A program made the translations under genes and the position numbers. From the IMG/VR virus record IMGVR_UViG_3300020391_000003, positions 32,001 through 96,000 of that record: a stretch of DNA of 64,000 nucleotides, one strand, 5' to 3'. This document shows positions 36,294 to 56,647 of this stretch, in pieces. Position 1 is the stretch's first letter. Every line of letters starts with the position of its first letter. Below the pieces are notes generated by a model. It searched no databases. It saw nothing but the letters and a program-made list of their open reading frames with translations, and was not told where the DNA came from. This stretch comes from a virus.

Positions 36294-36566
36294 ATGAAAA
36301 AATTGACATTAAACAAAGATGGTACTCCGCGCAGAAGGCGTAATTCTTCTGGTAAAGGCGGTACAGCTATTGTGACCTTGAGTGTTGACGAGATCATGGA
36401 ACTCGCTTCTCAGGACGTTTCTTCTATTCCCGTAAGTGAGGATTGGGTAAAGTCAAGACTCTACACAAATTACTTACAGAGCAAAAAGGTATCTGCTGAT
36501 TTCAGCGAAACGCAAAGCTCGGAAGACAAGATTGAATACGCAATTACATCTTTTGATAATGAATAA
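36294..36566 (+). CDS. Hypothetical protein, first gene of ruvB operon
   Basis: MKKLTLNKDGTPRRRR...; overlaps ruvB start. Confidence 0.6.
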   Translation: MKKLTLNKDGTPRRRRNSSGKGGTAIVTLSVDEIMELASQDVSSIPVSEDWVKSRLYTNYLQSKKVSADFSETQSSEDKIEYAITSFDNE

Positions 36567-37485
36567 TTATTTTGATCATCTTATAGGGCAAGACAATGTT
36601 AAGAAGAAGTTAAACTTCTACATTAAAGCTTATCACGCTACAAGTGTCTGCCCATTTTTGAATCTTGTTGGAGCAAAAGGACTAGGAAAAACTTTATTTG
36701 CGAAAGAGTTCGCCAAAAATCTTCACAATAAAGATGGAGGCAAAAGACCATTTATTGAGCTTAACTGCTCAACCATCAAGAATAACAGGCAATTCTTTGA
36801 GCAAATTTTCATTCCTTTGGTGATGAACAACGAGATTACTATTTTGTTTGACGAAGCTCATGCTTTGCCAAAAGATCTGACTATGGCTTTTCTTACTATT
36901 TTTAACACAGAAAAAACAAGCAAAAAAGAATTTATATTTGAAGAGCAAACTTTCGAATTTGATTTCACTAAGCAAACATTTATTTTTGCAACCACAGAAA
37001 GTGATAAATTGTTTCCTCCATTGAAAGACAGACTCAGTACAGTTGACTTTGAGCCATACTCAAAAGAGAATCTTGGAGAAATTATAAAACTAAATTGTGA
37101 TGGAATTAATTTTAGTGATGACGCTCTTTCTGCTTTATCTGAAACGGTTCGAGGCAACGCAAGAAATGCAGTGATGCGCTCAAAAGAAATTGTTCTTTAT
37201 TGCGAGTCAGAAAATCAAAACACTTTCGATATGCAAGATCATCTTAATCTTACAGATCTTCTTGGAATATTACCTCATGGTATTACTTGTACCGAGCGTC
37301 AAATCTTAGAGATTTTAGATCAAAGAGGTAGCTGTAAGCTACAAACTTTATCGGCAGTTACAGGCTTAAGCCCAACCAGTCTTAGAAGAGATCATGAGGT
37401 GTATCTTCTTAGAAAAAATTTCATGCAAATTGACGGAGAAAGAAAAATCACTAATTTCGGCAAAAACTTAATAAAATCAATATAA
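36559..37485 (+). CDS. ruvB: RuvB-like Holliday junction branch migration AAA+ ATPase
   Basis: FDHLIGQ, Walker A GAKGLGKT, Walker B ILFDEAH, ATT...PPLKDRL, RGNAR, C-terminal winged helix. Confidence 0.8.
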   Translation: MNNYFDHLIGQDNVKKKLNFYIKAYHATSVCPFLNLVGAKGLGKTLFAKEFAKNLHNKDGGKRPFIELNCSTIKNNRQFFEQIFIPLVMNNEITILFDEAHALPKDLTMAFLTIFNTEKTSKKEFIFEEQTFEFDFTKQTFIFATTESDKLFPPLKDRLSTVDFEPYSKENLGEIIKLNCDGINFSDDALSALSETVRGNARNAVMRSKEIVLYCESENQNTFDMQDHLNLTDLLGILPHGITCTERQILEILDQRGSCKLQTLSAVTGLSPTSLRRDHEVYLLRKNFMQIDGERKITNFGKNLIKSI

Positions 37486-37490
37486 TATAT

Positions 37491-37685
37491 ATGACCACAC
37501 AAAAACAAAAAACTGTATATGTAGTTACAAGAAACACAAGAAGAATTGAAGAACAAAATTATAATACCAAAGAAAAAGCTGAAGTTCGAGCGGCTCAGCT
37601 TGTAGAAGTTTTAAAAAAGTGGAGAGATCCTGATGTTAAGCGTGTAAGAGTTGTCGAAACAAATACTCCTCGAAAAATTAGATAA
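37491..37685 (+). CDS. Hypothetical protein
   Basis: Intact ORF in operon. Confidence 0.55.
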   Translation: MTTQKQKTVYVVTRNTRRIEEQNYNTKEKAEVRAAQLVEVLKKWRDPDVKRVRVVETNTPRKIR

Positions 37686-38175
37686 GTTGCAAAACGAAAA
37701 AAAACAGTCTTTATTTGAAAAAGCCGCAGAATCAAGGGGCTATTCTCCTCGCAAGCCAACTAGAGAAGAAAAGGCAGGATATCATGTTTCTCATATTCTT
37801 ACGGGCAAATCCTCATTAGGCAAAAAAGTTTGCATCAAAGTAGATCTTAAAAAAAATAAAAATAAAAAAAAGTTTGAAGATTGGCTTTGGATAGAATTTA
37901 AAAACTCAAAAGGAAAGCCAGGATGGATACATGGAGATGCGCACTTTTTGGTTTTTGAAAGATCAGAAGATTTTATTTTTGTTAATCGCAAAGAGCTTGT
38001 GGAGTGGTTAAGTAGCGCCAATAAAATTAGATACGATCTTCCATTTGTTGGCTTGGCAAAACAAGCAAAGTACAGAATATATAAGCGGGCAAACATGCCA
38101 GAAGAAATTACGCAAATTGCAGTTAAAGACATAAAATCGTTAAAATCTTTTCAAATTTGGCCAAAAAATGCCTGA
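37651..38175 (+). CDS. PD-(D/E)XK restriction-like nuclease-fold protein
   Basis: FEKAAE...KVDLKK...WLWIEFKN..GKPGWIHG pattern. Confidence 0.5.
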   Translation: MSKQILLEKLDKLQNEKKQSLFEKAAESRGYSPRKPTREEKAGYHVSHILTGKSSLGKKVCIKVDLKKNKNKKKFEDWLWIEFKNSKGKPGWIHGDAHFLVFERSEDFIFVNRKELVEWLSSANKIRYDLPFVGLAKQAKYRIYKRANMPEEITQIAVKDIKSLKSFQIWPKNA

Positions 38176-38620
38176 CGTAATATCTTTAGATAAAACTTAC
38201 CTTCGCATGGCAAGAGAGTGGTCAAAGCTGTCTAAAGCTCATCGCAAACAAGTAGGCTGTCTTATAGTCAAAGATGGCATGATTATTTCTGATGGCTACA
38301 ATGGCACACCAAGAGGCTTTGATAATAGATGTGAAGATTACATTGATTCTTATGCAATGCTTGCTTCTAGAGCGTATAAAATTGTAACCAAGCCTGAAGT
38401 TTTACATGCAGAAAGTAATGCAATCACAAAGCTTGCAAAGTCAACACAATCCAGCAAAGATTCCACTTTATATACCACAGTTTCTCCTTGTGTAGATTGC
38501 GCAAAACTTATTATACAGTCTGATATTTGTAGGGTTGTATATGGAGAATTATATAAAAATTCTGATGGAATTGATTTATTAAAAAAAGCTAAAATACAGG
38601 TTGAACACTGTGCAATTTAA
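38168..38620 (+). CDS. dCMP deaminase
   Basis: VGCLIVKD, GYNG, HAESNAI, SPCVDCAK zinc-binding motifs. Confidence 0.9.
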   Translation: MPDVISLDKTYLRMAREWSKLSKAHRKQVGCLIVKDGMIISDGYNGTPRGFDNRCEDYIDSYAMLASRAYKIVTKPEVLHAESNAITKLAKSTQSSKDSTLYTTVSPCVDCAKLIIQSDICRVVYGELYKNSDGIDLLKKAKIQVEHCAI

Positions 38621-38633
38621 ATTATAATCTCTC

Positions 38634-39173
38634 ATGTTAGAGGGAATATTTTTCGTTATAATTTTATGTCTTTTGTTTTATATAAAAGATCTTAAAAAAA
38701 GAGAAGATCCTAGAATTAGCGAGTTACAAGAAAAAGCTTGGACTTTAGAAGTTTCAGTTGAACAAGAGCGAGCCAATAAACAAGATTCAGAAAATCATGC
38801 AAAAATTAGCAGGCAATTTCTTGAAGACGAACGAGTTCACCGAAAGAATATCGAGAAACAACTTTTTGAAACTCAAGATAAATTAGAACAAGAAACAGAA
38901 CAGCGCAAAAAAGTTTTATCGCAAAAGAAAAGTGGCGAAGTTAGGCTAGGTCATATTGCTGAAACCTTAGCTCCATTTTTAGATCAGTTTGACTTTGATC
39001 CAGAAAATTGTTGCTTTATGGGCAAGCCCATAGATTATGTTTCTTTCGGGGATGATGAGATTACATTTATAGAGGTCAAGAGCGGTAATGCTCAACTTAG
39101 CAGCAAACAAAGACACATTAGAGATTTAGTTAAACAAAAATTAGTATCATGGAAAGAAGTAAGAATCAAGTAA
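38634..39173 (+). CDS. Archaeal-type Holliday junction resolvase-like nuclease with N-terminal TM/coiled coil
   Basis: GHIAETLAPFL, GKPIDYVSF, FIEVKSG..QLSSKQRHIRD. Confidence 0.75.
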   Translation: MLEGIFFVIILCLLFYIKDLKKREDPRISELQEKAWTLEVSVEQERANKQDSENHAKISRQFLEDERVHRKNIEKQLFETQDKLEQETEQRKKVLSQKKSGEVRLGHIAETLAPFLDQFDFDPENCCFMGKPIDYVSFGDDEITFIEVKSGNAQLSSKQRHIRDLVKQKLVSWKEVRIK

Positions 39174-39589
39174 ACTTAAAAGTAAAAAAAATTTTTTCGA
39201 ACGCAGTAATTCCCACCTACACAAAACTTGGAGATGCGGGAATGGACTTAACAGCTATTTCGGTAGAAAAAAGTGGTGCATACTATGAATACGGTACAGG
39301 TTTAGCCATAGAGCTTCCATTAGGCTATGTAGGACTTGTTTTTCCTCGCTCTAGTATATCCAAGACAGATCATTATCTACGCAACTCTGTGGGCGTTATA
39401 GATGCTGGGTACAGAGGCGAAGTTAAAATCAGAATGAGCGTACCGCTTCTTGGTGCGACAGAATACAAAGAAGGCGACAGAGTTGCTCAGCTTGTTATAA
39501 TGAAACTTCCTTGGGTTAATATCGAACAAGTAGATGAGTTGTCGGAAACTGATCGAGGTAAAGGTGGATTTGGAAGCACAGGAAATTAA
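39149..39589 (+). CDS. dut: Trimeric dUTPase
   Basis: GDAGMDL, PRSS, GVIDAGYRGE, RVAQLV, RGKGGFGSTG. Confidence 0.95.
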   Translation: MERSKNQVNLKVKKIFSNAVIPTYTKLGDAGMDLTAISVEKSGAYYEYGTGLAIELPLGYVGLVFPRSSISKTDHYLRNSVGVIDAGYRGEVKIRMSVPLLGATEYKEGDRVAQLVIMKLPWVNIEQVDELSETDRGKGGFGSTGN

Positions 39590-40489: not shown

Positions 40490-40726
40490 GTGCGAATATT
40501 ATTACTATTATATTTTCTTTCTGGTTGTACAGCGCAAAAATTGCCTCAACCTTCTGATACTGTATTTAAACCTGAAAATAGAAACTGGCTTTTAATATAT
40601 GAACTAGAGCTAGAAGCAGCATTAAAAAATGACGACACCGAAGCCTTCTATTTTTTTTGGTCAGAGTACATTAAAGAACTAGATAAACAAAAGCAAAATA
40701 GTGTAGATAATATCAATGAACTTTAA
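40490..40726 (+). CDS. Putative lipoprotein, paralogue of 52818-53156
   Basis: Signal plus LSGC lipobox; NDDTEAFYFFWSEY motif; GTGTA 9 nt upstream. Confidence 0.6.
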   Translation: MRILLLLYFLSGCTAQKLPQPSDTVFKPENRNWLLIYELELEAALKNDDTEAFYFFWSEYIKELDKQKQNSVDNINEL

Positions 40727-42431
40727 GATATTTTTTATTAATTTAAAAGACAACCCTGAACCATGGATAAAAGCTCAAAATATTTTCTCCCTTTTACCTG
40801 ATACCCTCAAGGTTGAGCGAATTGATGCGGTAGATACTAGAAAAGATCTATCTGCATTAGAAAAATTTAATTTAAAACTAGATCCCGTTGGATTAGTAAA
40901 CAAGCTGTATTTCTCTGAAAGTCCAGGCGCCGCAGGTTATTACCTAAACCACTTTTCAGCGTGGCAGCAAATCATAGAACAAAAACTGGATTTTGCGTTG
41001 ATTCTTGAAGATGATGTAGTTTTAACTGATGTTGTTCAATTTTTGCTTGAAAATCCAGACTTACACGACGGAATTGAACTTATGCATCTTGCCAAAAAAA
41101 GTCGCGATAGACTTCATGCCTATATTTTGAGCTATAACGGGGCAGCCAAGTTAATTGAATTAACACTTGATCACAGTCCGCTATCTAAGATTGATCCGTC
41201 ACGCAGTTTATTTTTTAATGAAAAATTAAATTTAAAAAATATAATAAGCAAAAATACTGAATTTGACTGGTCAACTAAAAGAGCTATATCTTCGCCAGTT
41301 GATAAGTTTGTGATGTATTGCTGCTCAGAATTGGTAGATGATTGGCATAGGTTGAATCGTATAATGATGCCGATTATAGACTTGTGTTTAAGCTCTGCCA
41401 ATAATTATCCTGATGCCCCCAAAAAAGAAAATGAAATTATAAAATTGATGGATTCGTGGAGATTTGAGCATTGGAAGAAAAATCCTTCAATTACAGTTTG
41501 CATTTGTACATACAATAATTATGAACTTTTAGAACAAGCTTTCCTTTCTTGCCAAAATCAATTAGGTGATTACGAATATAAAATCATTATATTAGATAAT
41601 TCTCCACACGATCTCAGGGATAACTCTAAAATAATTAAACTTGTAGAAAATTATAATAAAAATTTTTGGCAAGAAAATATTTCTAAAAACCAATTAAGTC
41701 TCGCTAACTTTGGGGCAGAATATTATCATAAAATTACTCATGGCCTTTCTGGAGCTAGAAATGAATGCATAAAATTATGCACTACGGATTTAATCTACTT
41801 TATAGATGATGATGCTACATTGAAACCCAATGCTGTAGCAAACATGGTTTCCAAGTTTAAATCGCCTCAGATTGGGGTTGTTGGTGGAAAAGTTACTCCT
41901 GATTGGGGGGAGCTAATTCGCCCTAGCTGGCTTAGCGATCAAGAACTCGGCAATCTCTCAATGTGCGATTTTTCTGAAAAAGATTTATTCCTTGAAGATA
42001 GTGAATTTCCAATATGGCTTGTAGGTGCAAATATTTGCTTTAGAACTGAGTATGTGAGAGATGTTGGTGGATTTAATACTTCTCTTGGAAGAAAAGGTGG
42101 GGGCTCTAATCTATTAAGCGGTGAAGAAGATGATCTAGTCAGAAAAATTAGGCAAAATTATTATGCTCTTTATACCCCTGATTGTGAAATTTTACATAGG
42201 GTTGATGAATCCAGATTGAATCAAAGCTGGTTTGTTAAGCGAAATGCATGGCAGGCAGTATCAAATATGATTGGCGGGGTGCTATGGATAGATGAAAAAA
42301 AGGGCGTCAGCGAAATTGTTAAAAACAATATACATTTAATATTTGAAGAGCCAAAGTCTGACACTGATTTTGATTTAAAATGTAAAATTATTGCATACTT
42401 AACTCATCTGCTTCTCGATGGAGATATATAA
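40716..42431 (+). CDS. Fused glycosyltransferase (GT25-like + GT2-like)
   Basis: FFINL...ALILEDD in N-half; VCICTYN, GARN, FIDDD, GANICFR, SGEEDD in C-half. Confidence 0.85.
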   Translation: MNFKIFFINLKDNPEPWIKAQNIFSLLPDTLKVERIDAVDTRKDLSALEKFNLKLDPVGLVNKLYFSESPGAAGYYLNHFSAWQQIIEQKLDFALILEDDVVLTDVVQFLLENPDLHDGIELMHLAKKSRDRLHAYILSYNGAAKLIELTLDHSPLSKIDPSRSLFFNEKLNLKNIISKNTEFDWSTKRAISSPVDKFVMYCCSELVDDWHRLNRIMMPIIDLCLSSANNYPDAPKKENEIIKLMDSWRFEHWKKNPSITVCICTYNNYELLEQAFLSCQNQLGDYEYKIIILDNSPHDLRDNSKIIKLVENYNKNFWQENISKNQLSLANFGAEYYHKITHGLSGARNECIKLCTTDLIYFIDDDATLKPNAVANMVSKFKSPQIGVVGGKVTPDWGELIRPSWLSDQELGNLSMCDFSEKDLFLEDSEFPIWLVGANICFRTEYVRDVGGFNTSLGRKGGGSNLLSGEEDDLVRKIRQNYYALYTPDCEILHRVDESRLNQSWFVKRNAWQAVSNMIGGVLWIDEKKGVSEIVKNNIHLIFEEPKSDTDFDLKCKIIAYLTHLLLDGDI

Positions 42432-43003
42432 TGATATGCGATAACAGAAATTTTATATTCGTTAGAGTTGCAAAGACTGGTTCTAGCAGTATCATTAAAG
42501 CACTTTTTCCAAAAAAAACTTGGCGGCAAAGAACAAAAGTCAATGATTGGGAAAAGTTTGATCCAAATCATTATCCTTTATTTAAAATTAAAGAAGTAAT
42601 TTCTAAAGAAAAATATGAATCATATTTTAAGTTTGCTTTTACTAGAAATCCATATGACAGATGCGTATCCGCATGGAAATATTCATTAAAAATGGGGTTT
42701 ACGAATCCAGAAAAAAAATTCCTGAATTACGTCAAGCAATTAAATCAAAATAATACGGACGCTAAGTATTTTAGCCAATATAAATTCGTGAAAGGATGCG
42801 ACTTTGTGGGCAAGCTTGAAAACCTTCAAGAAGACTTCGATATCATATGCGACAAAATTGGAATTCCACGTCAACAACTTCCACACGAAAATTCCACAAA
42901 ACACAAACACTACACCGAATACTACGATGGTGAAACTCGTAAGATTGTTGCGGAAAAATACGCAAAAGACATTGAGCATTTCAGATATGAATTTGGAGAG
43001 TAA
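42431..43003 (+). CDS. Sulfotransferase (Sulfotransfer_2-like)
   Basis: FIFVRVAKTGSSSI (5'-PSB loop), FTRNPYDRCVSAW (3'-PB), FVGKLENLQEDF. Confidence 0.88.
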   Translation: MICDNRNFIFVRVAKTGSSSIIKALFPKKTWRQRTKVNDWEKFDPNHYPLFKIKEVISKEKYESYFKFAFTRNPYDRCVSAWKYSLKMGFTNPEKKFLNYVKQLNQNNTDAKYFSQYKFVKGCDFVGKLENLQEDFDIICDKIGIPRQQLPHENSTKHKHYTEYYDGETRKIVAEKYAKDIEHFRYEFGE

Positions 43004-43859
43004 AGAACTAGTTATGGGCTACAATTCAATATCTTTTGGAACAAGCTGCATGGGCAGATTAAATCATTTAAGCCAAACTTATATCCACAATATAGAAACT
43101 GCATTAAGCGTAGATCGTAATTCAAAATTTGTTTTGTTAAATTATAATTCTCAAGATGGAATGCATGAGTGGGTGCAAGAAAATTTATCTAGCTACATTC
43201 AAAAAGGGACGCTTAAATATTTGCGCACATCTACTCCGCAAGAATTTTCGCAGTCTCACACTAAAAATATAACAAGTAAGCATGCAGATGCAGATATTGT
43301 TTGCCTACTAGATGCAGATCATTTTTTAACCAAGCGCTATGTTCAGCAAAATTTACTTTTCTTTAACCAAGAGTTCGACTCACACAAAATATCTAGACCA
43401 AAAGCAGAAGGAGGAAAAGGAGGAAGAATTGCTTTTCAAAAAAAAGATTTTTTAGAAATTGGAGGATTTGACGAACGCATGAAATGCTGGGGACACGAAG
43501 ATACAGACTTTCATTATAGATTCACGCATTACTTTGATAATGTATCAGAAATTACACCCGATATAGAAGAAGAATCAATCATACAGCATGATGACGATTC
43601 TAGAAATTCAAACTCAAAACTTACTGCGGCTCCCGCGATTCATTCAAAAGAAGAGTTTCAAAAATTTTGCAATACAATGAAATGGCATAGAACAAAAGCT
43701 CAGACTTTAGGAATAGATTTTGAGGAATATTTTAAACTTCATGGGCCAAGAATTATCAACAGAGAGTTTTCTGTAAGAATAGAAGAAGAATTTAACAAAA
43801 CTAAAGATTTTTCACTTATGATATCGAACAAAAATTTAGATTGGGGCAACCTTTCATGA
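42987..43859 (+). CDS. GT-A glycosyltransferase (GT2/GT7-like)
   Basis: SFGTSCMGR, LLDAD, GGFDERMKCWGHEDTD. Confidence 0.8.
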   Translation: MNLESKELVMGYNSISFGTSCMGRLNHLSQTYIHNIETALSVDRNSKFVLLNYNSQDGMHEWVQENLSSYIQKGTLKYLRTSTPQEFSQSHTKNITSKHADADIVCLLDADHFLTKRYVQQNLLFFNQEFDSHKISRPKAEGGKGGRIAFQKKDFLEIGGFDERMKCWGHEDTDFHYRFTHYFDNVSEITPDIEEESIIQHDDDSRNSNSKLTAAPAIHSKEEFQKFCNTMKWHRTKAQTLGIDFEEYFKLHGPRIINREFSVRIEEEFNKTKDFSLMISNKNLDWGNLS

Positions 43860-45568
43860 AAGAAAATTTAATTTTCAGTTCAATTGGAGATTTCGCCCAA
43901 CTGCCAAACTGGATTGGGTCAGATCAAAATTATGATATCTGGATAACTTATTATGGTGATGATGAAAACAAATACAATTACTATAAGCAGTATGTTCAGT
44001 TCATAAAAAAGTCCAAGGGCTCTAAGTTTCAGAATTTTAATCTCATATGGAAAGAGTTCCATTCAGAGTTAAACAAATATGAAAGATTTTTTATTTTAGA
44101 CGATGATATAATCTTTGATTCTTATAAAGATATTAATAAAATGTTTAATTTCGCCAAAGATCAGTCAACCTGGATTTGCGGCCCGACATTTAAATCTTCT
44201 GGAAAAATTTCACACAAAATCACCCAAACCGATGAAGGGGCATCTTTTAGATATGTAAATTTTGTTGAAATTAACACTCCTCTATTTTCTAATTTTGCTA
44301 TAAATAAATTTATGAAACACTATGATGACTCGCTTATTGGATGGGGCATAGATTTTTGCTACATTCAAATACTGGGTCACTCAGCCAAAAATAGATACGC
44401 TCTTGTTGATGAAGTTTCTGTAATAAATCCATTGCCCCAGAAAGCCTTAGATTTATGCAAGATTAATAATATAGACTTTTCATCTCAGGATTTTACGAGT
44501 AGCGAAAAGAGAATCGAACTTCAAGAATTCCTAGAGCAACCAACAGAGACAAGCGGAAGGGAACTCATGAATATAGAAGGCGCAGAAAACAGAAGCCTTA
44601 CATGGAAAAGTTTTTGTCAAAAAAATCAAATACGTCAACGTTTTGAATTAAAAAACTGGGAAGTAATTAAAAAAATAAAAAAAATCTTAATAACCAGAAT
44701 GCTCGGTAATGACCTGAGCGGACTTCATGGAGAAGAACAGACATTACGAAATTTAGAGTTTACCCTTAAAGAAGAACCGCATTTTGATAATGTAGATAAA
44801 CTTTTTATTTTAAACAGAATTGCCTGTAATTATAAAAAGCAAAAAATAATAAACCTGCTAAATGAATATGATGCAAGTTATGCGGAGATACCCTTTTGCT
44901 TTGAATCGTTTCAACAACTTACAAATGTAAGCTCAGAACTAAAACTAGAGCATTTTGACGAAAACAAAAACATAGACTTTATACTTCGACAACTTTTTGA
45001 GCATAATTTATATTTAGTCAACAATAATGCTTGTAGAAATTTCGCAATAGAATATGGAAAAAAAAGAGAATATGGCTGGACTTTTGTTTTAGACTCAAAT
45101 AATTTTTTTACAGAACAATTATTTAGCGATATTATAACAAATATCAATTTTAGCTCCGAGTATTTAGCGATACCACAAAAAAGACTTCAAGATGGTTATT
45201 TGCCAAATCAAATTTTACGTTGTGAAGGCTTTGAAAGATTGCTGGAATACCTACCCAATCAAGAGCCTCAGTTGGCATTTAAGCACACTTCAAATATCAC
45301 CTTTAATCAATTTATTCCTTACGGATTATCTCCAAAAGCAGAGCTTCTGAATGCGTTGAATATTCAAGGTAAATGGAATAATTGGCAAGAATATATTAGA
45401 CTTGGAATAAAACCAAGAAATTTTCCCGCAGCACGAACACAAACTCTTTCTTCGGTAATTAGACTTAATCCTCACTGCGAGGAAAACAATATTAATCAAA
45501 ATTGGATTTCTAGATGGAAAGGAATATATCTTTTATCTGAACAGTTAAGTAATAAGAAATATTTATAA
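43856..45568 (+). CDS. Two-domain putative glycosyltransferase (DUF707-like N-domain + second GT-A-like domain)
   Basis: YERFFILDDDI, FVEINTPLFS, GWGID; second half NNNACRNFAI...FVLDSN. Confidence 0.6.
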   Translation: MKENLIFSSIGDFAQLPNWIGSDQNYDIWITYYGDDENKYNYYKQYVQFIKKSKGSKFQNFNLIWKEFHSELNKYERFFILDDDIIFDSYKDINKMFNFAKDQSTWICGPTFKSSGKISHKITQTDEGASFRYVNFVEINTPLFSNFAINKFMKHYDDSLIGWGIDFCYIQILGHSAKNRYALVDEVSVINPLPQKALDLCKINNIDFSSQDFTSSEKRIELQEFLEQPTETSGRELMNIEGAENRSLTWKSFCQKNQIRQRFELKNWEVIKKIKKILITRMLGNDLSGLHGEEQTLRNLEFTLKEEPHFDNVDKLFILNRIACNYKKQKIINLLNEYDASYAEIPFCFESFQQLTNVSSELKLEHFDENKNIDFILRQLFEHNLYLVNNNACRNFAIEYGKKREYGWTFVLDSNNFFTEQLFSDIITNINFSSEYLAIPQKRLQDGYLPNQILRCEGFERLLEYLPNQEPQLAFKHTSNITFNQFIPYGLSPKAELLNALNIQGKWNNWQEYIRLGIKPRNFPAARTQTLSSVIRLNPHCEENNINQNWISRWKGIYLLSEQLSNKKYL

Positions 45569-45570
45569 TT

Positions 45571-46455
45571 ATGATATTATTAATTGGTGGTACTGGATAT
45601 GTCGGACTTAAATTTCAAGAGATTTTATCTTCACGCAATATTGAGTTTAGAAATCTTTCCCGTAATCAGGTGGATTATTATGATTTCAAAACATTGAACG
45701 ATGTTATTTCAAATGCAAAACCTGAGTTTGTATTAAACGCAGGCGGTTTTACAGGAAAACCAAACGTCGATCAATGTGAAATCAATAAAAGTGAAACAAT
45801 CATCGGAAACGTTCTTCTTCCTCAAATTCTTGGTCAAGTATGCGAACTTAACGATGTTCCATTGGTTCACGTATCAAGTGGTTGCATTTATGCAGGTGAC
45901 AAAGGAGAGAATACCGATGGAAGCAAAATCGGATTTACTGAAGAAGATACTCCGAACTTTTCATACGATCAACCTCCTTGTAGTTTTTATAGTGGAAGTA
46001 AAGCACTTGGCGAAGAAGTTTTAAGCAAGTTTGAAAAAGTATATACTTGCCGACTTCGTATTCCGTTTGACGAATTTGATTCAAACAGAAACTATCTTTC
46101 AAAGATTCAAAGATACGACAAAGTGTATAACGCAGTAAACTCAATTTCACATCGTGAAGAATTTGTAAATGCTTGTCTTGATTTACCATTGAATAAATGC
46201 GACTATGGAATCTACAATGTAACCAACGGAGGATATGTAACAACCAAGCAAGTAGTTGAGTGTATGAAGAAAAAATTTAAGTTGGAAAAAGAATTTGAGT
46301 ATTGGAAAGATGATTCAGAGTTTTATAGCAAAGGAGCAACTACACCAAGATCAAACTGCGTTATGGATAATAGCAAATTATTAAACACAGGAATCAAAAT
46401 ACGTTACTGCATGGATGCAATTGAAGATTCTTTTAACAAATGGAAGAAAGAGTAA
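45571..46455 (+). CDS. RmlD-like NDP-sugar epimerase/reductase (extended SDR)
   Basis: GGTGYVG, GKPNVDQCE, HVSSGCIY, FYSGSK. Confidence 0.85.
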   Translation: MILLIGGTGYVGLKFQEILSSRNIEFRNLSRNQVDYYDFKTLNDVISNAKPEFVLNAGGFTGKPNVDQCEINKSETIIGNVLLPQILGQVCELNDVPLVHVSSGCIYAGDKGENTDGSKIGFTEEDTPNFSYDQPPCSFYSGSKALGEEVLSKFEKVYTCRLRIPFDEFDSNRNYLSKIQRYDKVYNAVNSISHREEFVNACLDLPLNKCDYGIYNVTNGGYVTTKQVVECMKKKFKLEKEFEYWKDDSEFYSKGATTPRSNCVMDNSKLLNTGIKIRYCMDAIEDSFNKWKKE

Positions 46456-46490
46456 ATGCAAATCAACATAATTGATTATGAATTCGGAGA

Positions 46491-46670
46491 TTAATTTTTT
46501 ATTTTTTTATAAATCTTTTTTCTTTGTGAATCTGTAAGATTTTCGTATTGCATTTGAGCTTTTAATTTGGCAGTCATCTTTGCCCTGATTACAAATCGAT
46601 CTTTATTTTCTTGCATATATTTTTGGTACAAATAATCAAGCACGTCTTTACGCTCTTGTGGACTTAGCAT
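46491..46670 (-). CDS. Small basic hypothetical protein, antisense to neighbours
   Basis: Start moved to ATG 46670, 9 nt downstream of minus-strand GTGTA (46684-46680). Confidence 0.55.
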   Translation of the reverse strand: MLSPQERKDVLDYLYQKYMQENKDRFVIRAKMTAKLKAQMQYENLTDSQRKKIYKKIKN

Positions 46671-46745
46671 ATCATGATATACACTTTTTTGCAAAAATTT
46701 CATTTATTGCTTTACATTATAAGTAAAATATGTTAAGATCATAAA

Positions 46746-46997
46746 GTGTCAAAAATAACCAAAGAATTAAAAAACGCCACCTTTATCTATGACGAAGAAA
46801 AGAAAACGTTCACAATTATGGAAGCGGATGGATTCAATGGACATATTGAGTTAAACAAAGTTTACGCTTTTGCTTTTATGCGTTTTGTTGTTCGAATGGC
46901 TCAAAGAAATTGGCTTAGATCAAATAAAAGTATTTCCAAAATAATTGAAGAAGAAGAACTTGAAGAAAATGATTCAAATCAATTAAATTTATTTTAA
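46746..46997 (+). CDS. Hypothetical protein
   Basis: Intact ORF. Confidence 0.55.
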   Translation: MSKITKELKNATFIYDEEKKTFTIMEADGFNGHIELNKVYAFAFMRFVVRMAQRNWLRSNKSISKIIEEEELEENDSNQLNLF

Positions 46998-47137
46998 TGA
47001 GTAAATATACATTAGATGTTTCCAAAGAAGAAATCATAGAAATTTATGTCAAAGAATGGGTACTAAATTGGTGCAAAAAGAACCATCCAGAAGTTTTCGA
47101 TAAAGCTAAAGCTTATATCACAGAAAATTTGAAATAA
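46997..47137 (+). CDS. Hypothetical protein (46 aa)
   Basis: Not in ORF track; ATG overlaps upstream TAA; MSKYTLDVSKEEIIEIYVKEW... Confidence 0.5.
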   Translation: MSKYTLDVSKEEIIEIYVKEWVLNWCKKNHPEVFDKAKAYITENLK

Positions 47138-47216
47138 TATTTAAACTTGCGGCTAGTATTAATAAAGCCGAAATTTGTTTTATTGTTACACAATGAATCA
47201 TAAATTATTTTTATTT

Positions 47217-47807
47217 TTAGTTTTTTTTCTTTGCATGATATAAATCGTCCTTAATATCTTTAATAACTTTTTCAAGATAAGAAACTCTTTTATCTCTTGA
47301 TACAAAAGGAACAGACCAAAACTGACGAGTACGAAACCAAAGCCTCCAATTCCAGCCAAACACAAAAGAATATACTCCCATTATCAATCGCAACTTTACA
47401 GAGTTTGCATATAAAGTAAGAACTGGTAGCGCAGGAGCTCCGTGAGTTATATATGTTCTAACGATTCTATCTTTTAGCAGAGCGGATGGAAGCCCCATAG
47501 TCTTGGTGATAGACTTAAAATTATATGCAAATCCTGGAGTAAAAACTTCGTCAAAAAATACTTCAAGTTTTGGAGTGCAACGAAACCACCAAACAGGTGA
47601 TACAAAATAAATATGAGTTGACCAAGAAACATAATCTTTATATGTTTTTACTAAATCAGTATTCTCTCGCCTGAAATTTTCTTGGTACAATTCTATTGTT
47701 TTTATTTCAACTTTCTTGTTTTCCAAAATAGTTTTAATTGTTCTAAAAATTCCATCATAGCAGAAGGAATCTGTTTCGGGATGTCCGATTATTATTAGTG
47801 CTTTCAT
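47217..47807 (-). CDS. Flavodoxin-like NAD(P)H dehydrogenase (quinone)
   Basis: LIIIGHPETDSF, VSPVWWFRCTPKLEVFFDEV..PGFAY, ITHG. Confidence 0.85.
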   Translation of the reverse strand: MKALIIIGHPETDSFCYDGIFRTIKTILENKKVEIKTIELYQENFRRENTDLVKTYKDYVSWSTHIYFVSPVWWFRCTPKLEVFFDEVFTPGFAYNFKSITKTMGLPSALLKDRIVRTYITHGAPALPVLTLYANSVKLRLIMGVYSFVFGWNWRLWFRTRQFWSVPFVSRDKRVSYLEKVIKDIKDDLYHAKKKN

Positions 47808-47808
47808 A

Positions 47809-48513
47809 TTAAAAAAGGTTGTTGTTAAATACTTCAATTAAACCAAATTTTTGTGTGACAACTGCAATAGGAATAATTGCAAAGCCAATAAAAATAATAT
47901 AAGCATACGCATAAGAAACTATTTCAAGTTTTGGTCTCATTGCCTCGGTACGCAATCCAAGAGATTGAAACGTACTTGAAACTCCGTGAACAAGATGCTT
48001 GCAAAGCAAAAACATTGCGAGAACATAAAAAATGCTTATCCATTCTTTTTTGAATCCATAAATCATCATAGCATAAACATCGTGAATTTGCTCACCATTG
48101 GGTGATCCAACTGTTGTCATAAGGTTATCGTATTCAGGATAAATAATGCGAATAGTATAATGAAACAAATGAAAGAAAATGAAAGCAAAAATAATAGAAC
48201 CACTTAGACCCATACGCAATGAATGCCATTTGCTTTTTTTGGTAACTTCTATTTTATTTTTAATTGGTCTTGCTTTTTTGTTTTCACGAATTAATGCCAC
48301 TGCTACGACAATATGAATAAACACACTTGCAAACAATATTAAACGAGAACCCCATAATATAGGCATCGGTAGATTTTGCAAAAAGTATGCGTATGCGTTA
48401 ATGGCATCTTGACCAATAAAAATCTGAAGATTGCCTGTCATATGCACAAATACAAATCCTACGAGAACAAGACCAGTAAGTGCCATTAGATATTTTTTAA
48501 TTAATGAATTCAT
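47809..48513 (-). CDS. sdhC: Succinate dehydrogenase/fumarate reductase cytochrome b subunit (b558 family)
   Basis: KKYLMALTG, HMTGNL, AINAYA, FIHI, FHLFH, HLVHGVSSTFQSLG; five TM helices with haem-ligand His residues. Confidence 0.88.
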   Translation of the reverse strand: MNSLIKKYLMALTGLVLVGFVFVHMTGNLQIFIGQDAINAYAYFLQNLPMPILWGSRLILFASVFIHIVVAVALIRENKKARPIKNKIEVTKKSKWHSLRMGLSGSIIFAFIFFHLFHYTIRIIYPEYDNLMTTVGSPNGEQIHDVYAMMIYGFKKEWISIFYVLAMFLLCKHLVHGVSSTFQSLGLRTEAMRPKLEIVSYAYAYIIFIGFAIIPIAVVTQKFGLIEVFNNNLF

Positions 48514-49331
48514 TCTGGTCTTTTGCCCAAAGGCTTGCCGTCTTGACCAATCTCACCCTTTCTTATTTTAGTGGCAGAAACTTCTTGAAGCTCTTTGCTT
48601 AGTTCAAGCTGTTCTATATTATAACCAACACCTCTGCCGTAAAATACGTCAGTAATATTGGGTAATTCTACTACTTTTATTTTATTACCAAATTCCAAAC
48701 AAGCCGCATGAATTTCTTGTTTAACTTTTTCAAAATCATAAGGATTACTTTCATCAGTTCCAGCAACATCCCTTAGAGCTATACAGCATTGACCTGTTCT
48801 TTTAATTGCTTCTGCGACCAAAGTCTTGTGTCCGACATGAAATGGCTGATATCGACCGATTAATAATGCAGTGGGAGCTTGATTATCCCATTTTTCTGTT
48901 TCATAAATATTCTTCAAAGCCTTTTCGCACCACTCTTCAGGAGTCCCCTCTCTAAGAATCAAGTCTTGATCATCCCATCTTTTGTCTTTTGTTGGGTCTT
49001 CAAAAAGTTTGTTTGTATCTGCATATCTACCTTCTTTAATTCTATCAACCCATATTACAAAATCAGCATTAAATGCTTCTCTAGCTTCTTCTGTTGGACA
49101 ACAAAAATCCGAAACAACATATCCTCCACCAAGAGCCGCCCAATCTGCAAGTTTGCCCATTCTTCTTGCATGCTCTATACGATCTTCAGCAGAAAATCCA
49201 AGGTCTTTATGTATTTCTTGTCTGACTGCATCAGCGTTAAACCATACAGCATTTAGTCGTGGCACTAATTTTTCTGCTAAAGTTGTTTTTCCAGAACCTG
49301 GCAACCCCATAATTAAAATCTTTCTTTTCAT
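48510..49331 (-). CDS. Adenylylsulfate kinase-like domain fused to HIGH-family nucleotidyltransferase domain
   Basis: GLPGSGKTT, NADAVR, DRIEHARR (APS kinase-like); IGRYQPFHVGH and VSATKIR (HIGH/KMSKS-like). Confidence 0.8.
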   Translation of the reverse strand: MKRKILIMGLPGSGKTTLAEKLVPRLNAVWFNADAVRQEIHKDLGFSAEDRIEHARRMGKLADWAALGGGYVVSDFCCPTEEAREAFNADFVIWVDRIKEGRYADTNKLFEDPTKDKRWDDQDLILREGTPEEWCEKALKNIYETEKWDNQAPTALLIGRYQPFHVGHKTLVAEAIKRTGQCCIALRDVAGTDESNPYDFEKVKQEIHAACLEFGNKIKVVELPNITDVFYGRGVGYNIEQLELSKELQEVSATKIRKGEIGQDGKPLGKRPE

Positions 49332-49386
49332 TGACTATTTTACACTTTGTTGAATACATATTCAAATTTATTATTATAAATAATAT

Positions 49387-49462
49387 GCCACCTTAGCTCA
49401 GTTGGTAGAGCACCTCACTTGTAATGAGGATGTCGTCAGTTCGACTCTGACAGGTGGCTCCA
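49387..49462 (+). tRNA. tRNA-Thr(UGU)
   Basis: Complete 76-nt cloverleaf: GCCACCT/AGGTGGC acceptor, CCTCA-CTTGTAA-TGAGG anticodon arm, GTCAG-TTCGACT-CTGAC T-arm, encoded CCA. Confidence 0.95.
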
Positions 49463-49468
49463 TTTTAC

Positions 49469-49981
49469 ATGAACTTATACAATATACCCATACATCAAAA
49501 ATCGCCAAATATAGTTAATGCTATCGTAGAAATACCAAAAGGTACTAGCGTCAAATATGAATACGATAAAGACTTTGGAGTTTTTAAATATGACAGAAGT
49601 CTTACTTCTGCAATGACATATCCATGTAGTTATGGATATATTCCAAGTACATTAGGAGAAGACGGTGATCCTCTTGATTTTTTGGTTTATAATTCTACTC
49701 CTATTGACCGAGCTACTTTAGTTGAATGCAAGGTAATTGGAATTCTTGATATGGAAGATGATGGAGAAAAAGACTATAAAATACTTGGAGTACCTACTTC
49801 TCATGTTCGCAGACATTACAGTTTAAAAAGTATTGATCCAATGTTTCTTAAAATAGCTTCAAACTTTTTTGCACACTATAAAGATTTAAGCAAAAAACAA
49901 GTTAAAGTTTTTGATTGGCATGAAAAAGATCATGCTCAAAAAATAATCAATGAAGCAATACAGAGAACACCCACCGATTAA
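49469..49981 (+). CDS. ppa: Family I inorganic pyrophosphatase
   Basis: VEIPKG..VKYE, YGYIPST, EDGDPLD, DDGEKDYKI. Start moved out of the tRNA. Confidence 0.93.
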   Translation: MNLYNIPIHQKSPNIVNAIVEIPKGTSVKYEYDKDFGVFKYDRSLTSAMTYPCSYGYIPSTLGEDGDPLDFLVYNSTPIDRATLVECKVIGILDMEDDGEKDYKILGVPTSHVRRHYSLKSIDPMFLKIASNFFAHYKDLSKKQVKVFDWHEKDHAQKIINEAIQRTPTD

Positions 49982-51558: not shown

Positions 51559-51587
51559 TTGACATCTTTTGTCTTTCGTGCTAAAAT
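51559..51587 (+). promoter_or_regulatory. Sigma70-type promoter, ATG 7 nt after -10
   Basis: TTGACA-N17-TAAAAT, ATG at 51595. Confidence 0.8.
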
Positions 51588-51594
51588 GAACTCT

Positions 51595-52632
51595 ATGAAC
51601 GAAACAATACTAGGCTTAACTTGCATCAGTGAACAACTGAAAGACAAAGACAAGAAAAAATACTCTTTTCAAACTATGACTCGCAAGAGATTTAACGATC
51701 TTTGTGTAAAAGAAAGCAGAGATGAAGCCATTGATCAACTTTCTGAAAGGATTATTCACAATATTCGCACGACTCAGTACATTTTGCGTCATTGCATTAC
51801 AAATAACATTGTTCACTATCGTCTTAGTTCTGCTTTGTTTCCTCTTCTTACTGATTCAACTCTCGATCTCTCTCTTGAGTCTTTGCCGAATTATTCCACG
51901 ATTAAACACGAACTAAGATTTGCGGGGCTTATTGCTTTTTCTTTTAAAATGTCTATCAGTATTCATCCCGATCAGTTTAATGTTCTTGCATCTACAAACG
52001 AAATGTCTGTTGCAAAAAGCATCAAAGAACTTAATTTTCAGTCTGATATTATGGACATGATGGGTCTACCTCAAGATCATACTGCCCCTATGAATATTCA
52101 TATCAATGGTACTCCTCCCGAAATAGAATCAAAAGATGATCCTGATGTAGTGAAAAATGTTAGAATAAAAGAAATGGCAGAAAGATTTTATAATAACCTT
52201 ATGCGTTGTCAGCCAGGAGTATTCAATCGCTTGACCATCGAAAATGAAGATAAAGGTTTTTGGAATGTAGACAACATTATTAAATTTAGTGAATATATTT
52301 TCAAAAAATATGGGTTTAACCTTCCAATCTGTTATGACAACTTACATGACTTTTGCAATCCGTCCGAAGAACTTAGCACTTCATTTCAAGCAGAAAGATG
52401 TGCGTATACATGGGTAAACCCACTCAAGCAAGATGACCACTTTGTTGCTCCTGTGTTTCATTGGTCAGAGGGTAAACCCGAAAAGCCAAGGGCACACGCA
52501 GATTATTTTGCACTAGGAAATTTTCCACCGCATATCGCTATTGATCCTAAAAAACCTGTTAAATGGGAATGCGAAGTTAAGCAAAAAGACAAAGCGATTT
52601 CATTGTTGAAAAAAAATTTACAAAAAGTATGA
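51595..52632 (+). CDS. uvsE: UV damage endonuclease
   Basis: LGLTCIS, YRLSSALFP, SIHPDQF, NIHING, RLTIENED, YDNLHD, FHWSE, RAHADY, ECEVKQKD. Confidence 0.9.
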   Translation: MNETILGLTCISEQLKDKDKKKYSFQTMTRKRFNDLCVKESRDEAIDQLSERIIHNIRTTQYILRHCITNNIVHYRLSSALFPLLTDSTLDLSLESLPNYSTIKHELRFAGLIAFSFKMSISIHPDQFNVLASTNEMSVAKSIKELNFQSDIMDMMGLPQDHTAPMNIHINGTPPEIESKDDPDVVKNVRIKEMAERFYNNLMRCQPGVFNRLTIENEDKGFWNVDNIIKFSEYIFKKYGFNLPICYDNLHDFCNPSEELSTSFQAERCAYTWVNPLKQDDHFVAPVFHWSEGKPEKPRAHADYFALGNFPPHIAIDPKKPVKWECEVKQKDKAISLLKKNLQKV

Positions 52633-55498: not shown

Positions 55499-56647
55499 AT
55501 GAATAAAGAATTATACTTAATGTTAAAATCATCTGCCGAGTCGGATGTCGCAAAAGCCAAGTTGTCTTTAAAATTGCTTGGCAAACACGCAGTTGGAATT
55601 GGAGATCACTCTACCAATGATTTTTATAAAAATGCAGAAGAAGCACTCCATTTGCTTGATAATGCAAATAGTAGATTAGATACTTTGGAAAAATATATTG
55701 CCGAAATAAATGATTAATTTATTAGATATTGGAACTACATTTGGCGGTCTTAAAGACTTTGATGTAACAAATATAGTTAAACAATTATTGTGGAAAAATA
55801 ACGCACAAGAATTTACTTTAAAAATATCAAAAGATATTGACGATTATCACATTTATGTAAAAATAGAAGATGTAAAAAAATGAACAGGTTTGATTTAGAA
55901 GAAGACATCAGCAATCTCAACCAAATAGGTGAAGATATAGAAACAATGATATATGCTATTGGGGACTCTGCAAATAAATATAGCGAAGATCAATTACTAA
56001 ATATGTTGATTGGCATAAAACAATTACATGATACTCGTTATGAAAAAATGTGGGCTACATTTGAACACTTAGTTAAAAACGGAACGATTTCAAATAATAA
56101 GGTATGAGAAAAAAATCTTGGTATCTCTCTTCAGTCAGAAAAGAACAATTGGATCAATTTAAACTTTTAGAAATAAAAGACTTTTTTACAAATAAAGGTA
56201 TTCAATTACGACACACAAAAAAACAAATAAGAAAAAGAATATCTTATAGATTTTGGAGACCGATTGTTGAGCAAGTAAGTTCAAATATCAAATCATCAGA
56301 ACGAAATAATGTTGTACAAAAAATATGGAGAGAGATGGATGATCGTTGTTGTTTTCACACATTAACTCAATCGATTTATGATCTAGAATCACTTGCACTA
56401 TGCACAGAAGATCACGACAATGGACATTGGAACGAGAAGTAAAAAATATGTTGAATATCATATGTTTAATACATTTCATCCAATCTACGAAACAAAAATA
56501 CAAGTTCATGGTTTATGGCATGAAGCAAATGGTGAAATAAGATACGAGTCTATTTTAGAAGAAGAACCCGACGGAACGCAAATAAGCTACCTGTTCCCCA
56601 TCTTTAATCCCGACTCTGATGAGTTTGACAATTACTCTCGTTTATAA
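55499..56647 (+). CDS. Cluster of small hypothetical genes (55499-55717, 55880-56107, 56104-56442, about 56420-56647)
   Basis: Tandem same-strand ORFs typical of phage early regions. Confidence 0.5.

Follow-up and report, generated by a model that had tools for sequence, protein, structure and literature searches.

A candidate compact PAPS synthase and a putative, hypervariable glycan-sulfation cassette in a marine phage genome

How could a phage that encodes a sulfotransferase be supplied with activated sulfate when its genome holds no recognised ATP sulfurylase? The question is raised by a 64,000-nucleotide stretch of DNA (the window), which comprises bases 32001-96000 of a 184,324-bp phage genome, IMG/VR record IMGVR_UViG_3300020391_000003, with a CheckV completeness of 100%. 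Gene content was assigned by open reading frame (ORF) calling and by searches against three profile libraries (Pfam, PHROG, and NCBIfam). The window contains an operon of glycosyltransferases (GTs) with one sulfotransferase (40716-46455, plus strand), an inorganic pyrophosphatase gene, and a gene (49331-48510, minus strand) for a 273-amino-acid (aa) protein, here called KinNT, in which a P-loop kinase resembling adenosine 5'-phosphosulfate (APS) kinases is fused to a HIGH nucleotidyltransferase (NT). All the genes that a first-pass annotation had listed for this locus were present at or near the places it had assigned to them, according to ORF calls and profile matches. We propose that KinNT is a compact synthase of 3'-phosphoadenosine 5'-phosphosulfate (PAPS) that feeds a hypervariable glycan-sulfation cassette, a reading that in our judgement stands at an even balance. 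Sulfate activation is not known to depend on enzymes other than Sat or CysDN, followed by CysC. The broader suggestion that KinNT is a third class of sulfate-activating enzyme, a PAPS synthase of ~260 aa in which a minimal NT resembling nicotinamide mononucleotide adenylyltransferase (NMNAT) and carrying the HIGH motif replaces Sat or CysDN, is put forward more tentatively. From gene content, folds, motif conservation, co-occurrence, and adjacency, we infer the sulfurylase role of the NT domain, the identity of the acceptor, and every catalytic activity named below.

The sulfotransferase gene (42431-43003, plus strand; 190 aa) matched the Sulfotransfer_2 profile PF03567 with 60.1 bits (cut-off 22, E 5e-16), its residues 1-186 covering profile positions 4-251 of 252, and also matched phrog_3347 (E 3.5e-28). 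PAPS is bound through a 5'-phosphosulfate loop, K-T-G-S/T-S/T, and a 3'-phosphate motif, R-N/D-P-x-x-R-x-x-S. Both motifs are kept in the phage protein, as AKTGSSS and RNPYDRCVS, in agreement with the PAPS requirement assumed by the first-pass annotation. When 24 phage homologues were aligned, K15 was kept in at least 90% of them and R72, N73, and S80 were invariant. The straightforward reading of these residues predicts a PAPS-dependent enzyme acting on carbohydrate. A sequence search of the PDB returned no relative at E <= 1, and a search of the complete genome found no second sulfotransferase, leaving 42431-43003 as the sole such gene.

The complete genome was searched for the enzymes that would be expected upstream of such a protein. 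No Sat-type ATP sulfurylase was detected (PF01747, none at E <= 0.1 in the whole 184-kb genome), and no member of the CysD/CysH family (PF01507) was found in the complete genome; sulfate adenylylation in this genome therefore lacks a canonical enzyme. Also not found in the complete genome were a PAP phosphatase and an NTP_transferase-type sugar nucleotidyltransferase, including the RmlA type. Sugar activation is thus a step that the system could not perform by itself, and the description of the locus as self-contained is only partly borne out, given the lack of a canonical ATP sulfurylase, a sugar nucleotidyltransferase, and a PAP phosphatase in the complete genome. The pyrophosphatase (family I; 49469-49981, plus strand) matched the whole PF00719 domain with 165.5 bits (cut-off 23.5, E 1e-48) and scored 168.9 with the NF002317 equivalog model, under its cut-off of 200. 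Its start is probably ATG 49469, because the alternative GTG 49454 overlaps a tRNA gene at 49387-49462.

KinNT consists of a kinase (residues 1-147) followed by a minimal HIGH domain (HxGH / ISxTxxR) at residues ~150-265. Residues 5-87 were aligned with positions 5-92 of the 152-position APS kinase profile PF01583, with 49.2 bits (cut-off 21.1, E 7.5e-13). AlphaFold2 models were obtained for the whole protein (predicted local distance difference test, pLDDT, 93.6) and for the NT half alone (pLDDT 94.5). In a Foldseek search of the PDB, the matches listed were almost all APS kinases (E ~4e-8). Superimposition with VIA on CysC from M. tuberculosis (4rfv) gave a Z of 17.7 and a root-mean-square deviation of 1.8 Å over 127 residues at 28% identity; the corresponding values were Z 16.7 at 15% identity for gluconate kinase and Z 10.5 for human nicotinamide riboside kinase. 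The modelled kinase half has the APS-kinase fold, and the APS-kinase kinship claimed for this fusion from sequence was borne out structurally by both Foldseek and VIA.

Residue conservation in the kinase half was examined in an alignment of 53 diverse full-length KinNT members. The P-loop and R37 were invariant, and F46 and R51 were kept in at least 90% of the members. These three residues align with residues of PAPSS1 and APE1195, and in the PAPSS1 alignment the xVR...LGFS..DR..RR block is kept. In solved APS kinases, the Arg/Phe/Arg residues of this block bind APS. In one family member, P0374, the KinNT-type NT domain is joined to an APS kinase domain that is canonical (127.8 bits), and the KinNT family therefore grades into true CysC. 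We regard the kinase step of KinNT as reasonably supported.

The NT half carries the motifs GRYQPFHVGH and VSATKIR. In the 53-member alignment, residues G159, R160, Q162, H165, H168, G232, R233, G236, and R257 were invariant. Its best structural matches were NadM/archaeal NMNAT and phosphopantetheine adenylyltransferase (PPAT), with Z 10.2-10.3 over ~111 residues (1f9a, 2qjt, and 4nah), compared with Z 8.2 (116 residues) for the ATP sulfurylase of T. thermophilus, 6.8 for that of yeast, and 6.7 for PAPSS1. Since the NMNAT and PPAT values exceed those of the sulfurylases, the fold names an adenylyltransferase and not its substrate. Scores against NCBIfam models were 34 for NF003786 (cut-off 397) and 20.5 for TIGR01527 (cut-off 181), and the NadM match had an E of 1.7e-8. 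The sulfurylase step we infer from the conserved catalytic residues, the obligatory pairing with the kinase, and the genomes whose search turned up no alternative enzyme for sulfate activation. The PAPS route drawn by the first-pass annotation, with a sulfurylase, an APS kinase, and pyrophosphate (PPi) hydrolysis, is accordingly retained for the APS-kinase-like fold and the pyrophosphatase; its sulfurylase is only a proposed role for a domain that most resembles NMNAT and PPAT.

More than 3,400 proteins matched KinNT. The top 120 were at least 74% identical to it and came from marine phage contigs of up to ~210 kb. Clustering at 50% left 2,920 representatives, which included stand-alone kinase halves and stand-alone NT halves. 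In a tree built by a quick method, the marine phage clade formed its own well-supported branch, and no donor was named.

A genome scan revealed full-length homologues of KinNT (40-57% identity) in many Alphaproteobacteria, SAR11, a gammaproteobacterium, Saccharibacteria, and Melainabacteria. A gene for a TPR-Sulfotransfer_3 protein directly adjoins KinNT in eight bacterial loci and lies ~10 kb off in a ninth; these loci span Bradyrhizobium, Sphingomicrobium, other Alphaproteobacteria, and a gammaproteobacterium. The Sulfotransfer_3 proteins found beside bacterial KinNT belong to a different family from the Sulfotransfer_2 enzyme of the phage. In Bradyrhizobium sp. Pha-3 (L149 68-10789), a single operon comprises an unknown 756-aa protein, a C39-peptidase ABC exporter, HlyD, two TPR-Sulfotransfer_3 proteins, and KinNT, and in another locus (L124) a Sulfotransfer_2-like ORF lies directly upstream of KinNT. 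Among the 38 KinNT-bearing genomes searched for pathway genes, Sulfotransfer_3 was present in 25, CysD in 15, and Sat in two. A sulfotransferase with neither a Sat nor a CysD match was recorded in 13 genomes (13/38 overall, 13/25 of those with a sulfotransferase).

Five alphaproteobacterial KinNT genomes (G023, G026, G027, G028, and G031; 4-5.6 Mb, one a complete 4.0-Mb chromosome) showed no match to Sat, CysD, or PAPS_reduct. They either do without assimilatory sulfate reduction or use unrecognised enzymes. An argument from a hole in the assimilatory sulfate reduction pathway was tried and failed, as soil genomes without CysD or Sat were also without CysH-family matches.

The SAR11 group was sampled evenly across 151 Pelagibacteraceae species. 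KinNT was found in 103 of them (for example, L178 9992-10773 and G059:C1:319175-319941) and Sulfotransfer_3 in 52, and the two occurred together in 46; the odds ratio was 5.6, with a Fisher p of 9e-5, in a test uncorrected for phylogeny or genome completeness. In most SAR11 genomes, the kinase and NT are split into adjacent, overlapping genes within a conserved core locus with the order Rieske oxygenase, kinase, NT, enoyl-CoA hydratase, CoA-binding protein, MsrA, and Flavodoxin_2. Some SAR11 genomes carry a fused KinNT inside glycosyltransferase/epimerase islands.

Co-occurrence with sulfotransferases was also observed in phages. In a collection of 50,697 cultured-phage records, the kinase homologue occurred in four of the six records with a sulfotransferase homologue, compared with 17 of the 50,697 overall (Fisher p 1e-13). 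The first-pass annotation had named gene co-occurrence in related phages as a check, and this check came out in its favour: a sulfotransferase match was present in all 16 searchable KinNT contigs that were 100 kb or longer, 15 of them with 2-11 matches to Sulfotransfer_2 and the remaining one with a match to Sulfotransfer_3. A pyrophosphatase was present in 13 of the 16, often at the left edge of the relatives' island. Within the marine phage clade, KinNT is 72-91% identical, and the sulfotransferases, which lie inside the variable island, are 35-50% identical.

The number of sulfotransferase domains differs among these phages. Five relatives (G006, G008, G012, G020, and G021) have 10-11 Sulfotransfer_2 matches each, distributed over several islands, and the window phage has only one. 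Some of these matches share one ORF, of 620-657 aa, in which three sulfotransferase domains follow one another. In salvoviruses such as Xylella phage Bacata (L002), KinNT overlaps an NADAR-like (COG3236) gene (record 29138-30314). Their sole sulfotransferase signal is a sub-threshold PF03567 match (13.6 bits) near the genome end (record 55899-56156), which makes them the clearest KinNT case without an evident sulfotransferase.

Several observations weigh against a PAPS synthase that feeds the cassette. At the level of the protein, the match of the KinNT kinase to the APS-kinase profile ends after the first two-thirds, the lid of the kinase is shortened, and its TIGR00455 score of 45.1 bits is under the equivalog cut-off of 138.7. 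The DGDN site reads N32-A-D34-A, with the first Asp replaced by Asn; at least 90% of the family members retain D34, and among them the first position is N, D, S, or E. Both Asp residues of this motif are essential in human PAPSS1 (PMC8528679). The NT half is structurally closer to NMNAT and PPAT than to ATP sulfurylase, and it has no sequence match to the latter, PF01747 being absent from the Pfam scan of KinNT. At the level of gene context, KinNT and the sulfotransferase of the window lie 6 kb apart on opposite strands. No Sulfotransfer_3 match was found in 57 of the 103 KinNT-positive SAR11 genomes, and the split SAR11 pair adjoins genes for enoyl-CoA hydratase and a CoA-binding protein. Salvoviruses carry KinNT with only a sub-threshold sulfotransferase match. 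Conversely, in two complete genomes of sulfotransferase-bearing phages neither KinNT, APS kinase, nor pyrophosphatase was found, so host PAPS can suffice. The 13 bacterial genomes without a Sat or CysD match are soft evidence, because many of the bacterial genomes are incomplete metagenome-assembled or single-amplified genomes, and the phage, bacterial, and SAR11 co-occurrence counts all ignore shared ancestry.

The alternative that best survives this evidence is that KinNT acts as an APS kinase only, with APS made by the host CysDN or Sat and the NT domain serving regulatory nucleotide binding or an unrelated adenylyl transfer. The clear APS-kinase ancestry does sit in the kinase half, stand-alone kinase halves exist, the operon of Ralstonia phage phiRSL1 pairs a sulfotransferase with a kinase half that has no recognisable NT half, and the NT fold sides with NMNAT and PPAT over ATP sulfurylase. 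However, the HxGH and ISxTxxR motifs and the Arg and Gly residues are invariant in the 53 members, which argues for catalysis over mere binding; moreover, the split kinase and NT halves remain adjacent, and the 13 sulfotransferase-bearing KinNT genomes offer no Sat or CysD match to supply the APS. We consider this alternative rather unlikely.

A second alternative holds that KinNT has nothing to do with sulfate and adenylylates another metabolite, whether in a NadR-like NAD salvage, as a CoA-synthase-like combination of PPAT and dephospho-CoA kinase, or for a new cofactor or signal, its position near sulfotransferases being synteny only. It draws on the NadM/NMNAT and PPAT matches of the NT half (Z 10.3, NadM E 1.7e-8, and the GRxQPxHxGH motif), on the near-core status of the SAR11 pair (103/151) beside enoyl-CoA hydratase and CoA-binding protein genes, on the salvovirus KinNT that stands beside an NADAR-like (COG3236) gene with no clear sulfotransferase, and on the missing first Asp of DGDN. 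The CoA-synthase version, raised by the tie between the PPAT and NMNAT folds and by the CoA-related SAR11 neighbours, was set aside, since 13 of the 14 KinNT genomes tested also encode the canonical CoaD and CoaE, which would make such a role redundant. NAD salvage of the NadR type was likewise set aside, as neither Nampt nor NAPRTase was found in the complete phage genome and the kinase half is much closer to CysC (Z 17.7) than to riboside kinase (Z 10.5). Any role outside sulfate metabolism also leaves unexplained the repeated adjacency of KinNT to two unrelated sulfotransferase families and the co-occurrence in 16 of 16 contigs of the phage clade, and we judge it distinctly improbable.

The operon itself consists of five genes. 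Its first gene (40716-42431, plus strand) encodes a soluble 571-aa fusion of an N-terminal GT25 domain (PF01755, 36.5 bits, cut-off 24, E 6e-9) and a C-terminal GT2 domain (PF00535, 63.9 bits, cut-off 23.3, E 2e-17), with homologues of 35-50% identity in the islands of relatives. The sulfotransferase follows, and then a GT2/GT7C-like glycosyltransferase (PF10111, 51.3 bits; PF02709, 38.6 bits) that begins at ATG 42987 or 43014 and ends at 43859 on the plus strand; no counterpart was found in the relatives' loci that were fetched. The next gene (43856-45568, plus strand) encodes a 570-aa two-domain protein. Direct Pfam, PHROG, and NCBIfam scans of this protein gave no match, and its N-terminal half was assigned by homology as DUF707-like and is predicted to be a glycosyltransferase of the GT-A type: over residues 3-272, its identity to a protein with PF05212 (DUF707) is 43%, and most homologues carry PF05212. 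A second domain, at residues 278-566, shows a GT2-like NNxxxRN...LDSN pattern and has stand-alone counterparts of ~330 aa at 53% identity. Homologues of the 570-aa protein are fused with GT25, Branch, GT2, GT92, and Sulfotransfer_2 domains in many combinations, and in the protein atlas it clusters with viral glycosyltransferase and DUF707 groups. The last gene (45571-46455, plus strand) encodes an RmlD-like extended short-chain dehydrogenase/reductase (SDR), a predicted nucleotide-sugar reductase (PF04321, 87.3 bits, E 1e-24). With TIGR01214 it scored 64.6 bits, under the equivalog cut-off of 224, and was assigned to the superfamily domain PF04321 only; ~41% identical copies occur in the islands of many relatives. 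No membrane segments were predicted in any enzyme of the operon, and no flippase, polymerase, or priming transferase is encoded in the cassette. The GT and sulfotransferase cassette described by the first-pass annotation is thus real by its profile matches, with enzymes that are predicted to be soluble.

The operon is not an assembly artefact, because an independent metagenome run from 2020 yielded one contig of 5,819 bp that spans 40709-46527 with two differences. Bins of runs X7 and X9 that had no coverage, and joints with a short side, were kept out of the evidence. Contigs of other samples diverge or join across at 40745 and at 46483-46535 (loose ends at 46519-46535). These break points therefore bracket the operon as an exchangeable cassette, from a small lipoprotein gene to a small gene at 46491-46703. 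The former (40490-40726, plus strand) encodes a lipoprotein-like protein of 78 aa with the N-terminus ...LLYFLSGC and has its own GTGTA word 9 nucleotides (nt) upstream. It forms the conserved left border of the cassette, and in relatives its homologues (43-57% identity) likewise occupy the left end of the variable island. The 78-aa protein could be a lipoprotein of the superinfection-exclusion type.

The genes that surround the cassette belong to nucleotide metabolism and DNA repair and not to a structural module (36532-39589 and 51559-52632). Upstream are a RuvB-like AAA ATPase, a dCMP deaminase, a nuclease resembling archaeal-type Holliday-junction resolvases, and a dUTPase, and downstream is the UV endonuclease UvdE.

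These flanks, together with the phiRSL1 operon in which Sulfotransfer_2 and APS kinase genes accompany a ThyA-like hydroxymethylase, a 5-hydroxymethyldeoxyuridine (5-hmdU) DNA kinase, and a TET-associated glycosyltransferase (TAGT), are what could be said for a cassette that decorates a modified base of the phage DNA; this is very improbable for the window phage, since neither the hydroxymethylase (PF00303) nor the 5-hmdU DNA kinase (PF18723) was found in its complete genome, none of its GTs matched TAGT or other DNA-glucosyltransferase families in the Pfam scan, and GT25, GT7C, DUF707, and Sulfotransfer_2 are glycan-acting families. The DNA-modification option of the first-pass annotation is thereby lost as far as a hydroxymethyl-pyrimidine route of the phiRSL1 type is concerned, and DNA hypermodification was set aside for this phage and not for phiRSL1.

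Under the PAPS synthase reading, the operon 40716-46455 would be one allele of a hypervariable, exchangeable glycan-decoration cassette. The soluble GTs (GT25+GT2, GT2/GT7C-like, and DUF707-like) would use sugar nucleotides made by the host, with one of them tailored by the RmlD-like reductase, to build an oligosaccharide in the cytoplasm of the infected cell, and the Sulfotransfer_2 enzyme would sulfate the glycan with PAPS. For the donor, the C-terminal HIGH domain of KinNT would convert ATP and sulfate to APS and PPi, the N-terminal kinase domain would phosphorylate the 3'-OH of APS to give PAPS, and the phage pyrophosphatase would clear PPi and so pull the unfavourable sulfate adenylylation. 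Our guess is that the acceptors are phage or host surface glycoconjugates assembled in the cytoplasm. Cytoplasmic glycosylation of surface components is favoured over an exported polysaccharide because the enzymes appear soluble, flippase, polymerase, and priming transferase are lacking in the cassette, and the operon has the GTGTA word in common with the fibre gene.

This word, a candidate promoter element of the GT operon, stands at 40701-40705 (plus strand), 10 nt before ATG 40716, and again at 49341-49345 (minus strand), 9 nt before ATG 49331 of KinNT, as the first-pass annotation had reported in suggesting that the two units may be co-expressed late. Scanning the 40 nt upstream of 228 ORFs across the genome gave 35 copies, 19 of which lie exactly 9-10 nt before the start codon; the giant fibre gene is also preceded by GTGTA at -9/-10. 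The idea that GTGTA is an over-represented word was rejected, with 53 copies found against 68 expected, and only the fixed -9/-10 position is non-random.

KinNT is the first of three co-oriented, overlapping genes on the minus strand (49331-47217). The second (48513-47809) encodes a membrane cytochrome b of the SdhC/b558 family with about five hydrophobic helices (TIGR02046, 166.9 bits, cut-off 96), and its start overlaps the KinNT end by 4 nt. The third and last (47837-47217) encodes a Flavodoxin_2/NAD(P)H:quinone oxidoreductase-like protein (PF02525, 67.7 bits). The SdhC-b558 gene is predicted to be co-transcribed cargo beside KinNT. The SdhC-b558 and Flavodoxin_2 genes (47217-48513) are translationally coupled behind KinNT. 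Both were absent from all 94 related phage loci fetched and were found in near-identical contigs from three metagenome runs. The phage Flavodoxin_2 protein is 29% identical to a Flavodoxin_2 that one SAR11 genome encodes three genes away from its kinase/NT pair. A tRNA-Thr (TGT) gene (49387-49462, plus strand) lies between KinNT and the pyrophosphatase, where it marks a divergent intergenic region and stands outside the pathway; over 55 nt, it shares 92.7% identity with tRNA-Thr from coliphages of the T4 type. In the metagenome runs, this tRNA gene had a very high summed contig depth and many loose ends, as expected of a widely shared sequence. The first-pass annotation had passed over the SdhC-b558 and Flavodoxin_2 genes that overlap the kinase gene, the tRNA before the pyrophosphatase, and the lack of an ATP sulfurylase gene in the genome.

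If the proposed role is correct, a new and very small architecture joins sulfate activation, and a function is assigned to the KinNT family, with its ~2,900 cluster representatives and its presence in two-thirds of the sampled SAR11 species. It would explain how sulfotransferases are fed without canonical activation in SAR11, some soil Alphaproteobacteria, a Saccharibacteria genome, and abundant marine phages of 150-220 kb, and such phages would synthesise sulfated glycans while they infect. Sulfation would then be an investment of a marine phage lineage that is abundant, whose members would combine as many as 11 matches to sulfotransferases in one genome with a donor supply of their own and a pyrophosphatase. 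This would point to sulfated glycans that the phage makes as a surface or decoy material, in an ocean where sulfated polysaccharides abound. KinNT would also give enzymatic sulfation a small catalyst with which to regenerate PAPS. Phage sulfotransferases and the phiRSL1 APS kinase already bear these names in database annotations. Literature searches, whose coverage was incomplete so that prior work is possible, did not find a description of a kinase fused to an NMNAT-like domain or of glycan sulfation by phages; nor did we find described KinNT as a sulfate-activating enzyme, its spread in SAR11, or the association, throughout the marine phage clade, between KinNT and enlarged sets of sulfotransferases.

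KinNT can be compared with several known systems. NadM/archaeal NMNAT and PPAT (1f9a, 2qjt, and 4nah) share the GRxQPxHxGH and ISxTxxR motifs with its NT half. However, the NT half is ~40-50 residues shorter and has its own invariant residues R187, G232, R233, and G236; in contrast to those enzymes, KinNT has no NAD or CoA gene context in the phage, and in bacteria it coexists with CoaD and CoaE. Bacterial operons in which dioxygenases, sulfotransferases, and PAPS synthetases accompany tail-collar or collagen-like substrate proteins were predicted in 2010 (Iyer et al., PMC2938197). From comparative genomics, these operons give a precedent for sulfotransferase genes with a PAPS supply of their own, and their predicted targets are fibre-like proteins. 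They pair sulfation with protein hydroxylation, whereas the window cassette has GTs and no dioxygenase, and the KinNT architecture is not in that study.

Among phages, the closest parallel is Ralstonia phage phiRSL1, whose ORF230-238 (L004 163104-171498), like the window phage, combine several GTs, a Sulfotransfer_2 protein, and an APS-kinase homologue. The latter is 45% identical to the kinase half of KinNT and lacks a recognisable NMNAT-like half. The phiRSL1 cluster further holds a ThyA-like hydroxymethylase, a 5-hmdU DNA kinase (PF18723), TAGT, two nucleotidyltransferase/kinase genes, and separate NTP-transferase genes. The ThyA-like enzyme, the DNA kinase, and TAGT together indicate a DNA hypermodification setting. 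Sulfated DNA hypermodification is a possibility for the phiRSL1 operon.

Metazoan PAPSS1/2 (1x6v and 2ofw) offer a precedent in domain order, being, like KinNT, single polypeptides with an N-terminal APS kinase followed by a domain of the nucleotidyltransferase superfamily with an HxxH-type motif, and their kinase fold matches that of KinNT (Foldseek E 4e-8; VIA Z 17.0). They differ in that KinNT has 273 aa against ~620 aa, its second domain is a module of ~120 aa closer to NMNAT/PPAT where theirs is a PF01747 sulfurylase accompanied by a PUA-like domain, its DGDN motif has Asn for the first Asp, and its kinase has a shortened lid. In bacteria, PAPS supply is tied to sulfotransferases by CysDN/CysC, by NodPQ with NodH, and by RaxPQ with RaxST-RaxA-RaxB. 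The Bradyrhizobium KinNT locus mirrors the layout of the Xanthomonas rax genes, which serve sulfated-peptide secretion, with KinNT in place of the PAPS-supply genes. Unlike systems of the NodPQ/RaxPQ type, it would involve neither the GTPase-coupled CysDN nor Sat, and a single small fusion protein would perform both steps.

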